NCBI GenBank assembly: GCA_963720805.1 | Contig: CAVRGT010000001.1 | Location: forward strand, 170,187 to 234,186 | Reading direction: 5' to 3' | DNA length: 64,000 nucleotides | From: an uncultured Solirubrobacterales bacterium | GTDB taxonomy: Bacteria; Actinomycetota; Thermoleophilia; Solirubrobacterales; 70-9 | In this document: positions 6,136 to 7,952 of the stretch, piece by piece | Position numbering within the stretch: position 1 is the first letter of the stretch | How the letters are laid out: each line of letters starts with the position of its first letter | The notes under the pieces: model-generated | Seen by the model: the letters and a program-made list of their open reading frames with translations, nothing else | Databases searched by the model: none | Told to the model about the DNA's origin: nothing | Made by a program: the position numbers and the translations under genes

Positions 6136-6252
6136 CCACATCTAGAGGGGTGGAGGGACTGGCCCGATGAAACCCCGGCAACCGCCCCGGACCAACAGGT
6201 TCGGGGGAGGTGCCAACTCCAGCAGGTCAAGTCGAAGGCCTGGAAGATGTGG
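6136..6252 (+). promoter_or_regulatory. SAM-I (S-box) riboswitch aptamer
   Basis: P1 is CCACATCT (6136-6143) paired with AGATGTGG (6245-6252). The conserved core AGAGGGGTGGAGGGACTGGCCCGATGAAACCCCGGCAACC and ...GGTGCCAACTCCAGCAG... matches the S-box consensus as I remember it. Confidence 0.85.
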
Positions 6253-6268
6253 GGAATGTCCGATCGGA

Positions 6269-6299
6269 CCTCTGCCCCACAAAAGGCGGAGGTTTTTTT
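6269..6299 (+). terminator. Riboswitch expression-platform intrinsic terminator
   Basis: Stem CCTCTGCC/GGCGGAGG (one G-U pair) followed by T7. GTGGGG (6249-6254), which overlaps the 3' strand of P1, can instead pair with CCCCAC (6275-6280) as an antiterminator. Confidence 0.75.
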
Positions 6300-6332
6300 G
6301 TTGGCGGTAACGCAACGAGAGGGAAAGATCGG

Positions 6333-7565
6333 ATGGCCATCGAGAATCTGAAATGCAAGGAGTGCGGGGCGAGGTATGACCTCGGCGCGCACTTCGCCTG
6401 TGAAAACTGCTTCGGGCCGCTGGAAGTGGCCTACGACTACTCGGCGCTCGACCCGGCCGAGACCAAGCGCAAGATCCAGGCCGGCTCGCAGGGAATCTGG
6501 CGCTACGCCGACTTCCTGCCCTTCGAGGGCCGCCCCGGCGACCCGCTCGAGCCCGGGCTGACGCCGCTGCTGCGCGCCGACCGCCTCGCTGAACGCCTTG
6601 GCGTCGAGGCCGAGATCTGGATCAAGAACGACGCCGCCAACCCGACCCACTCCTTCAAGGACCGGGTCGTCGCCGTCGCCGTGGCGAAGGCTCAGGAGCT
6701 CGGCTTCGACACCGTCGCCTGCGCCTCGACCGGCAACCTCGCCAACGCCGTCGCCGCCCACGCCGCCGCCGCCGGGCTCAAGTCCTACGTCTTCGTGCCC
6801 GCCAACCTCGAGGAGCAGAAGCTGCTCGCGACCGGCATCTACGGCACCAACCTGGTCGGCGTGCGCGGCAACTACGACGACGTCAACCGCCTCTGCACCC
6901 AGCTCGCCGAAACCCGGCCCTGGGCCTTCGTTAACGTCAACCTGCGCCCCTACTACGCCGAGGGCTCGAAGACGCTCGCCTACGAGACGGCCGAGCAGCT
7001 CGGCTGGAAACTGCCGGACCGCGTCGTCTGCCCGATCGCCTCGGGCTCGCTCTTCACCAAGGTCGGCCGCGGCTTCCAGGAGTGGCTGGACATCGGTTTG
7101 GTCGAGGGCTCCCAGCCGGTCTTCAACGGCGCCCAGGCGGAGGGCTGCAGCCCGGTCGCCACCGCCTTCGCCGAAGGCTGGGACGTCTGCAAGCCGCAGC
7201 GCCCCGACACGATCGCCAAGAGCCTGGCGATCGGCGATCCCGCCGACGGCCCTTACGCGGTCGAGCAGGCCCGCCGCACCGGCGGCGGGGTCGACTCGGT
7301 CAGCGACGCCGAGATCCGCGACGCGATCAGCCTGCTGGCCGAGACCACGGGCATCTTCACCGAGACCGCGGGCGGCGTCACCGTCGGCGTGCTGAAGAAG
7401 CTGGCCGACCGCGGTGAGCTGGCGGCCGGCGAGCGCGTCGTCGTCTACATCACCGGCGAGGGGCTGAAGACGCTCGACGCGACCCGCGATAGGTTCCGCA
7501 TGCACGAGATCGACCCCCACCTCGACAGCTTCGAGTCCGAGTTCGCCCAGGAGGTAAGCGTCTGA
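6333..7565 (+). CDS. Threonine-synthase-family PLP enzyme with an N-terminal Cys4 zinc ribbon; possibly a homocysteine-forming MetM-type enzyme
   Basis: PTHSFKDR lysine motif and ThrC-like fold. N-terminus CKECG..(x12)..CENCFG. An SD (GAGAGGGAAAG) precedes the ATG at 6333. The stop overlaps the next start (TGATG). Confidence 0.9.
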   Translation: MAIENLKCKECGARYDLGAHFACENCFGPLEVAYDYSALDPAETKRKIQAGSQGIWRYADFLPFEGRPGDPLEPGLTPLLRADRLAERLGVEAEIWIKNDAANPTHSFKDRVVAVAVAKAQELGFDTVACASTGNLANAVAAHAAAAGLKSYVFVPANLEEQKLLATGIYGTNLVGVRGNYDDVNRLCTQLAETRPWAFVNVNLRPYYAEGSKTLAYETAEQLGWKLPDRVVCPIASGSLFTKVGRGFQEWLDIGLVEGSQPVFNGAQAEGCSPVATAFAEGWDVCKPQRPDTIAKSLAIGDPADGPYAVEQARRTGGGVDSVSDAEIRDAISLLAETTGIFTETAGGVTVGVLKKLADRGELAAGERVVVYITGEGLKTLDATRDRFRMHEIDPHLDSFESEFAQEVSV

Positions 7566-7837
7566 TGGCAGTCACCGTGAAGATCCCGACCCAGCTGCGC
7601 GCCGCCACCGACGGCGAGGCCGAGCTCGAGGTCGCCGGCGCCACCGTCGGCGAGGTGCTCGACGCGGTCTTCGAGGCCCACGGCACCCTGCGCGAGCGGA
7701 TCACCGAGGACGGTGACCTGCGGCGGTTCGTCAACGTCTATGTCAGCGGCGAGGACATTCGCTTCCAGCAGGGGCTGGAGACTCAGATTGACGATGGCGC
7801 CGAGGTGACCATTCTCCCGGCCGTCGCGGGTGGTTGA
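7565..7837 (+). CDS. ThiS/MoaD/CysO-type sulfur-carrier protein (C-terminal GG)
   Basis: 90 aa, ubiquitin-like length, ending ...ILPAVAGG*, and translationally coupled to the upstream ThrC-like gene. Confidence 0.8.
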   Translation: MAVTVKIPTQLRAATDGEAELEVAGATVGEVLDAVFEAHGTLRERITEDGDLRRFVNVYVSGEDIRFQQGLETQIDDGAEVTILPAVAGG

Positions 7838-7952
7838 GCGGTCATCCCGGTAGGGGTTTCGCTTAACTTTTTGGGTGGAGACGGAATTGCTGTCGCCTCG
7901 GGGGTGGACGCCCAAAAAGTGCAAGACGCTCCACCCCTACCGGGATGACCGC
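7838..7952. repeat. 115-nt nested palindrome filling the whole intergenic region and including the rfbF start codon
   Basis: The outer 20-nt arms GCGGTCATCCCGGTAGGGGT (7838-7857) and ACCCCTACCGGGATGACCGC (7933-7952) are perfect complements. The inner imperfect arms are CTTAACTTTTTGGGTG and CGCCCAAAAAGTGCAAG. Confidence 0.8.

Follow-up and report, generated by a model that had tools for sequence, protein, structure and literature searches.

Why would a gene that reads as a threonine synthase gene be placed behind a riboswitch for S-adenosylmethionine (SAM)? The question is raised by a locus within a 64,000-nucleotide stretch of DNA (the window) from an uncultured Solirubrobacterales bacterium (assembly GCA_963720805.1, contig CAVRGT010000001.1), in which a SAM-I riboswitch is followed by a gene of the ThrC family and by a gene for a small sulfur carrier of the ThiS/MoaD fold (Table 1). 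The analysis described below shows that the locus is very probably a two-gene MetM/MetO-type operon that is repressed by SAM and makes homocysteine, and thus serves methionine rather than threonine synthesis. The system is of the MetM/MetO kind that has already been published, now encountered in the Solirubrobacterales; it is not a new kind of system.

The MetM/MetO route is known from Streptomyces. In the GapMind paper of 2026 (PMC13759103), which cites Hasebe et al. 2024 (Appl Environ Microbiol 90:e01247-24), the Streptomyces proteins MetO, Mec, MoeZ and MetM are listed as having experimental support in the conversion of O-phosphohomoserine to homocysteine. The same paper describes MetM as 'often misannotated' as threonine synthase and Mec as the enzyme that matures the terminus of MetO. 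According to PMC12172450, metM of S. albulus has a SAM riboswitch upstream and metO adjacent to it. A first-pass annotation of the window, made by a model from the letters of the sequence, had pointed to such a route in Streptomyces, and this proved accurate, as the pathway is that of Hasebe et al. 2024 as cited in both of these sources.

Table 1. Features of the proposed riboswitch-controlled operon, with positions in the window
Feature	Position	Strand	Basis
SAM-I (S-box) aptamer, helices P1-P4	6135-6253	+	RF00162 full-model match
Candidate antiterminator hairpin	6248-6281	+	local fold, -17.7 kcal/mol, computed
Intrinsic terminator, 10-11 bp stem (6266-6276/6285-6295), 8-nt loop, seven U (6293-6299)	6266-6299	+	terminator scan and minimum-free-energy fold
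Shine-Dalgarno-like AGAGGGAAAG, 6-9 nt 5' of ATG	6318-6327	+	read from sequence
metM-type gene, ThrC-family pyridoxal phosphate (PLP) enzyme, 410 amino acids	6333-7565	+	family matches, orthologue distribution, tree, clade-specific residues
metO-type gene, ThiS/MoaD-fold sulfur carrier, 90 amino acids, ends ...PAVAGG-stop	7565-7837	+	family matches

The riboswitch and the two genes

The aptamer was recovered in a cmscan search of the whole window as an untruncated match to RF00162 (SAM-I) that covers model positions 1-108 of 108 with a score of 90.3 bits (E 3.3e-20), where the gathering score of the model is 44.4 bits. At the gathering threshold the window contained one further Rfam match, a tRNA, and the 2.67-Mb assembly contained no other SAM riboswitch match than the one upstream of the metM-type gene. 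Folding of the leader reproduced the four-helix aptamer, with a P1 of 8 bp (6136-6143 paired with 6245-6252), and the fold of the whole leader was far more stable than that of shuffled sequences (z = -6.2). In the candidate antiterminator an outer stem (6248-6254/6275-6281) encloses an inner one (6258-6261/6266-6269). This hairpin takes up the P1 3' strand as well as the terminator 5' arm and so excludes P1 and terminator alike. The leader, as modelled, has the classical S-box OFF architecture. Two features indicate membership of the SAM-I class: the score of the full-model match, which exceeds the gathering threshold, and a platform that, in the folding models, competes with P1.

We infer the switching from folding, and it would proceed as follows. 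Plentiful SAM would bind the aptamer and lock P1, whereupon the terminator would form and transcription would end ahead of metM. At low SAM, the P1 3' strand would pair with 6275-6281 instead, the antiterminator would form and both genes would be transcribed. Such an OFF switch fits an enzyme of the methionine pathway and so supports the assignment of the locus to homocysteine synthesis. The terminator was called on the pattern of stem and U-run, on its mutual exclusivity with P1 and on its conservation, and not on the stability of the local fold, which for the 70-nt terminator segment alone was unremarkable relative to shuffled sequences (z = -0.57). Compensatory changes preserve the hairpin in genomes from the same family and order, for example CCUCUGCC/GGCGGAGG versus CCUUCGCC/GGCGAAGG. 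A scan of the 160-nt divergent spacer for the sigma-70 consensus found no promoter, which says little for a high-GC actinobacterium.

The metM-type gene starts with the ATG at 6333 and ends with a TGA stop at 7563-7565. A longer frame that starts with a GTG at 6210 crosses both the aptamer and the terminator, and the start was corrected to 6333. The product matches the thrC model TIGR00260 with 279.5 bits (cut-off 167.1) and the Pfam PALP domain with 245.8 bits. The former match is not diagnostic for ThrC, because TIGR00260 does not discriminate between ThrC and MetM. The protein has an N-terminal CxxC...CxxC ribbon (C8, C11, C23 and C26) and the PLP lysine K109 within an SFKDR motif, and is predicted to be an O-phosphohomoserine-dependent homocysteine synthase. 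The carrier matches the Pfam ThiS domain (54.8 bits) and NCBIfam MoaD/SAMP1 models, and its best relatives of solved structure are of the CysO type (4n6e_B, E 7e-25, and 3dwg_C of M. tuberculosis, E 2e-19). The stop of metM and the start of metO overlap by one base (TGATG), by which the two genes would be translated as a coupled pair.

The first-pass annotation had described this architecture in much the same terms, and its description stood up to the searches. It had claimed a well-formed S-box aptamer with an 8-bp P1, which the full-length Rfam match bears out, and a terminator/antiterminator platform, for which folding gives two mutually exclusive hairpins. Its reading of a threonine-synthase-family gene behind the riboswitch, overlapping a gene for a 90-residue ThiS/MoaD-like protein that ends in GG, agrees with the family matches and the overlap given above.

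In most genomes of the same family a second, weaker match to RF00162 (around 101 nt, 39-60 bits) is found at another locus, for example at C1:917371-917471 on the reverse strand of the relative G317 (locus L129, 3872-3972). It lies upstream of a small uncharacterised protein; the present assembly lacks such a second match.

Separation from canonical threonine synthase

The source assembly, a metagenome-assembled genome of 2.67 Mb in 13 contigs that is 82% complete, encodes three proteins of the ThrC family. Its named close homologues likewise point to the Solirubrobacterales. The highest score on the thrC model (306 bits) belongs not to the window gene but to the gene at C7:33490-34629 (positions outside the window are given with the contig handle), which lies between the genes for homoserine dehydrogenase and homoserine kinase and beside lysA, in a lysA-hom-thrC-thrB cluster that represents the usual actinobacterial arrangement. 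The window gene is therefore not the sole candidate for a threonine synthase. The first-pass annotation had proposed looking for a second bona fide thrC in this genome, and this gene answers that description.

To delineate the orthologues, the window protein was compared with 301 Actinomycetota genomes. The distribution of identities was bimodal: in around 140 of the genomes a protein matched over its full length with 51-81% identity, and all remaining matches reached 44% at most. In the reverse search with the canonical ThrC, a protein of 56-72% identity was found in nearly every genome, including those that carry the window type. When 50 window-type proteins and 30 canonical ThrC were placed in a maximum-likelihood tree, the two sets were split with a Shimodaira-Hasegawa-like approximate likelihood ratio (SH-aLRT) support of 100. 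The window protein, whose placement in a phylogeny of ThrC had been advised earlier, thus falls in a separate clade, apart from the ThrC of the hom-thrC-thrB clusters.

The two clades have 62 positions in common, including the PLP lysine and its SFKDR motif, and a further 29 positions are conserved within each clade yet differ between them. The discriminating positions include V112/V113 after the lysine (G/M in canonical ThrC), L136/A137 after the STGN motif (T/S in canonical ThrC) and N203/R205/Y208 (S/N/R in canonical ThrC). The four cysteines of the N-terminal ribbon are confined to the window-type clade. All eight sampled Streptomyces genomes contain a window-type orthologue, 54-59% identical to the window protein; the genus of these genomes was taken from the names of exactly matching adjacent carrier proteins, e.g. 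of S. achromogenes.

The third ThrC-family protein of the genome has 416 amino acids (C1:33509-34759, forward strand; locus L132, 1501-2751) and also carries an N-terminal CxxC...CxxC ribbon. Roughly two-thirds of the 29 MetM-type signature residues are present in it. Its branch in the tree is very long, and in 200 sampled Actinomycetota genomes no relative was found that is closer than MetM itself (41-48% identity). Its gene has neither a carrier gene next to it nor an Rfam RNA upstream or nearby. The protein is perhaps a MetM-family enzyme that was acquired recently or evolves fast.

Conservation of the gene context

The association of riboswitch, enzyme and carrier extends well beyond this genome. 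A carrier gene (90-97 amino acids, with the PAVAGG motif) lies directly downstream in 45 of 50 orthologous loci, often with an overlap of 1 or 4 nt, and RF00162 was found just upstream on the same strand in three quarters of the loci scanned for RNA (30 of 40), including all eight of Streptomyces. The C-termini of the carriers vary, with GGC at the end of one Streptomyces carrier and GGR, GGAG and similar endings in certain other lineages of the sample. The branching inside the window-type clade largely tracks taxonomy. The riboswitch-MetM-MetO module is widespread in the Actinomycetota and appears to be mostly vertically inherited there. Together with the canonical thrC elsewhere and the separate clade, the conserved riboswitch and carrier support the claim of the first-pass annotation that the role of the gene is in methionine rather than threonine synthesis.

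Within the MetM-type clade there are departures from this arrangement. One subclade (loci L053, L054 and L055 of genomes G102, G157 and G299) lacks both the SAM riboswitch and the carrier gene in the 3 kb to either side, and in the loci of family f17 (L033-L042) the carrier is kept and the riboswitch is absent from those scanned. Regulation varies within the clade, and perhaps sulfur delivery does too.

Homocysteine supply in this genome and its family

The genes that would supply the substrate are encoded elsewhere in the genome, with Hom at 438.7 bits and ThrB at 216.4 bits (cut-off 168.25). In the proposed pathway ThrB would convert homoserine to O-phosphohomoserine, MetM would swap the phosphate of the latter for sulfur carried as a C-terminal thiocarboxylate on MetO, yielding homocysteine, and MetH, encoded at C7:164712-168109, would methylate homocysteine to methionine. 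We infer the central reaction (O-phosphohomoserine and MetO-COSH to homocysteine) by orthology from the work on S. albulus.

Other routes to homocysteine were looked for in the assembly. No real enzyme of PF01053 (Cys_Met_Meta_PP, the MetY/B/C/Z type) was found, the best match being a partial one of 30.9 bits, and MetX, MetA (HTS), HcyBio and MetE were likewise not found. The check for metX, metY and metB that had been proposed earlier thus gave neither MetX nor a PF01053 enzyme in the assembly. Given that the assembly is incomplete, ten genomes of the same family were checked for PF01053. Eight of them, among which are genomes of 95-97% completeness, also lack a PF01053 enzyme, and all have the riboswitch. 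Considering these absences from the assembly and from most of the relatives, the MetM/MetO pair appears to be the sole recognisable homocysteine route of this lineage.

This has consequences for annotation. The first-pass annotation had anticipated that pipelines would call the gene thrC, and the named close homologues do carry the label 'threonine synthase'. With this label on the gene and its homologues, metabolic reconstructions would wrongly predict methionine auxotrophy. The mislabelling affects abundant soil actinobacteria, and the eight family genomes just mentioned have no other recognisable homocysteine enzyme.

Activation of the carrier

Several observations weigh against the assignment of the locus to the MetM/MetO pathway. 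The orthology to MetM rests on Streptomyces species other than S. albulus. In addition, PMC12172450 reports a cyanobacterial homologue, 51.6% identical to MetM, that acts as a threonine synthase/deaminase and not clearly as a MetM in cells, so that membership of the clade alone is no proof of the activity. The metH gene (C7:164541-168208) is split into two adjacent frames near C7:167535, beside a C-run, a split that reflects an indel of the assembly or else a genuine frameshift. Most importantly, a MoeZ-type activase and a JAMM/Mec protease were not found in the 82%-complete assembly, and a comparison of this genome with the 80 kb that surround these genes in the relative G317 gave scattered paralogous matches and no synteny by which a gap could be located.

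The absence from the window of E1-like activating enzymes and JAMM proteases, noted in the first-pass annotation, was confirmed: ThiF-family matches occur on contigs C12 and C3 only, and Prok-JAB has zero matches in the whole assembly. The search for a MoeB/ThiF-type activase in the rest of the genome, also suggested there, had a mixed outcome, as it gave one atypical protein of the ThiF family and none of the MoeZ type. This sole ThiF-family protein of the assembly (C12:322831-323949) lacks a rhodanese domain and scores below every NCBIfam cut-off.

The relatives present a different picture. Genomes of the same class that encode MetM and MetO possess a MoeZ-like gene as well, with a rhodanese next to it and a JAB gene not far away. 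Both the MoeZ-like and the JAB gene occur in nine of ten genomes of the same family, the exceptions being the present genome and one that is 71% complete. In the four relatives in which the distance could be read (G317, G309, G310 and G311) the two genes lie 8-17 kb apart on one contig, so that a single assembly gap could hide both. The simplest reading is that MoeZ and Mec are concealed in one unassembled region. A MoeZ-type E1 is expected as the enzyme that charges MetO. Trimming of the Mec type may not be needed here, since MetO already ends in GG. The only other ThiS-family domain of the genome occurs in a ThiS-ThiG fusion, which also needs an E1. That the pair is the sole homocysteine route and runs altogether without MoeZ and Mec, with a GG-ending MetO that is charged by another enzyme (e.g. 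that at C12:322831-323949) or with sulfide used directly, we consider unlikely.

The ThiF-like protein on C12 has an N-terminal extension of around 95 amino acids, and its C-terminal region just reaches the model for TOMM leader-peptide binding (TIGR03882, 36.9 bits). A counterpart was not seen in the relatives G103, G045 and G145.

Alternative explanations

The missing activation genes lend themselves to a reading in which homocysteine is made from O-phosphohomoserine with free sulfide or persulfide, or in which an enzyme other than MoeZ, for example the ThiF-like protein on C12, charges MetO. An accessory protein that three relatives do not show, and a carrier whose exact GG terminus may make a maturation protease unnecessary, would both be in keeping with it, as would the failure to find MoeZ or Mec in the assembly. 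However, the carrier gene stands beside the enzyme gene in 45 of 50 loci and is often translationally coupled to it, which argues that the carrier is used, and the ThiS-ThiG fusion of this genome would likewise depend on an E1. With MoeZ-like and JAB genes in nine of ten relatives, their absence is most simply attributed to the 82% completeness, and we regard this explanation as quite unlikely. A second possibility keeps the enzyme within threonine metabolism, as a SAM-regulated isozyme of threonine synthase (or a synthase/deaminase) with a functionally unrelated carrier gene as its neighbour. Such an isozyme would account for the score above the TIGR00260 thrC cut-off and for the retention of the PLP lysine and many core residues of ThrC (the 62 common positions), and the activity reported for the cyanobacterial homologue in PMC12172450 provides a precedent. 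Against it stands that a canonical thrC is already present in the hom-thrC-thrB cluster and that the window protein belongs to a separate clade with full support. Moreover, repression by SAM is the wrong logic for steering O-phosphohomoserine to threonine, the linkage to carrier and riboswitch is conserved across the phylum, and without the window enzyme the genome would be left without a homocysteine route. On the basis of tree, gene context and regulatory logic this isozyme is rejected, its probability being very low.

The CysO-type relatives of the carrier bring in a third candidate, a pair like CysM/CysO that makes cysteine from O-phosphoserine with a thiocarboxylated carrier. That one MoeZ serves several carriers in mycobacteria, as PMC3227635 has it, is compatible with such a pair. 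Yet CysM is a member of the CysK family, and the window enzyme scores weakly on the cysK/cysM models (for example around 40 bits versus a cut-off of 387) and groups with the ThrC family. SAM riboswitches, furthermore, govern genes of methionine and SAM metabolism, and the Streptomyces orthologue is reported as homocysteine-forming in PMC13759103. The candidate was rejected because the enzyme belongs to the wrong family, and we hold it to be highly improbable. A SAM-repressed operon of the MetM/MetO type remains the preferred interpretation of the locus.

Relation to known systems

The resemblance to MetM/MetO of Streptomyces covers the enzyme, of the ThrC family with an N-terminal cysteine ribbon and 54-59% identical to the Streptomyces orthologues, as well as its setting: a carrier of the GG type encoded directly downstream, a SAM-I riboswitch upstream and a separate canonical thrC in the genome. 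The differences are modest and comprise the terminator platform, the ready-made GG terminus and the apparent dependence on one route. The Streptomyces leaders lack a hairpin or U-run of the kind that forms the transcription terminator here, and around 20 nt separate their aptamer from the start codon, an arrangement that suggests control at the level of translation. The expression platform thus differs by lineage, being a terminator in the present genome and probably a translational one in Streptomyces. MetO of the present genome ends exactly in GG, whereas the one Streptomyces carrier mentioned above ends in GGC. Compared with the Streptomyces system, MetX, MetY and the other known homocysteine routes were not found here, nor were MoeZ and Mec in the 82%-complete assembly.

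With canonical ThrC (TIGR00260; PDB 6cgq, 2zsj, 1uim and 2d1f) the window protein has in common the PLP fold, the SFKDR motif, the 62 core positions and, as predicted, the substrate O-phosphohomoserine. It differs by its separate clade, by the 29 discriminating positions that include the flanks of the catalytic lysine and of the STGN motif, by the additional N-terminus that resembles a Zn-ribbon, and by gene context and regulation. In the CysM/CysO/Mec/MoeZ system of M. tuberculosis (PMC3227635), a protein thiocarboxylate attacks a PLP-bound intermediate of the aminoacrylate type derived from a phospho-amino acid, and the reaction of the MetM-type enzyme would be analogous. The carrier is of the CysO type in both cases and the same E1 (MoeZ) would be expected. 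Unlike CysM, however, the window enzyme belongs to the ThrC family, is predicted to convert O-phosphohomoserine to homocysteine and is encoded under the control of a SAM riboswitch.

A protein thiocarboxylate also figures in another methionine route. Krishnamoorthy and Begley reportedly described, in 2011, a thiocarboxylate-dependent synthesis of methionine by HcyS, MetY, HcyF and HcyD in Wolinella succinogenes. This W. succinogenes route is mentioned in PMC8191291. By analogy, the sulfur of homocysteine would in both systems come from the thiocarboxylate of a ThiS-like protein. The partner of the Wolinella carrier, in contrast, is an O-acetylhomoserine sulfhydrylase (MetY, PF01053), while in the present genome PF01053 was not found and the substrate would be phosphorylated instead of acetylated.

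Minor observations

Two further features were noted, one elsewhere in the assembly and one next to the operon. The frame at C3:53008-53700 encodes a CysK-like cysteine synthase of which the C-terminal half is replaced by low-complexity sequence of Arg, Ser and Pro, which suggests an assembly frameshift. Directly after the metO stop a nested inverted repeat of 115 nt with perfect arms begins (7838-7952), which reaches across the start codon, at 7945, of the gene that follows, a homologue of glucose-1-phosphate cytidylyltransferase. Its RNA fold is very stable (-81.2 kcal/mol, z = -8.8), but the lack of a U-run sets it apart from classical terminators. The 3' boundary of the operon could lie here, or the sequence could be a repeated element.

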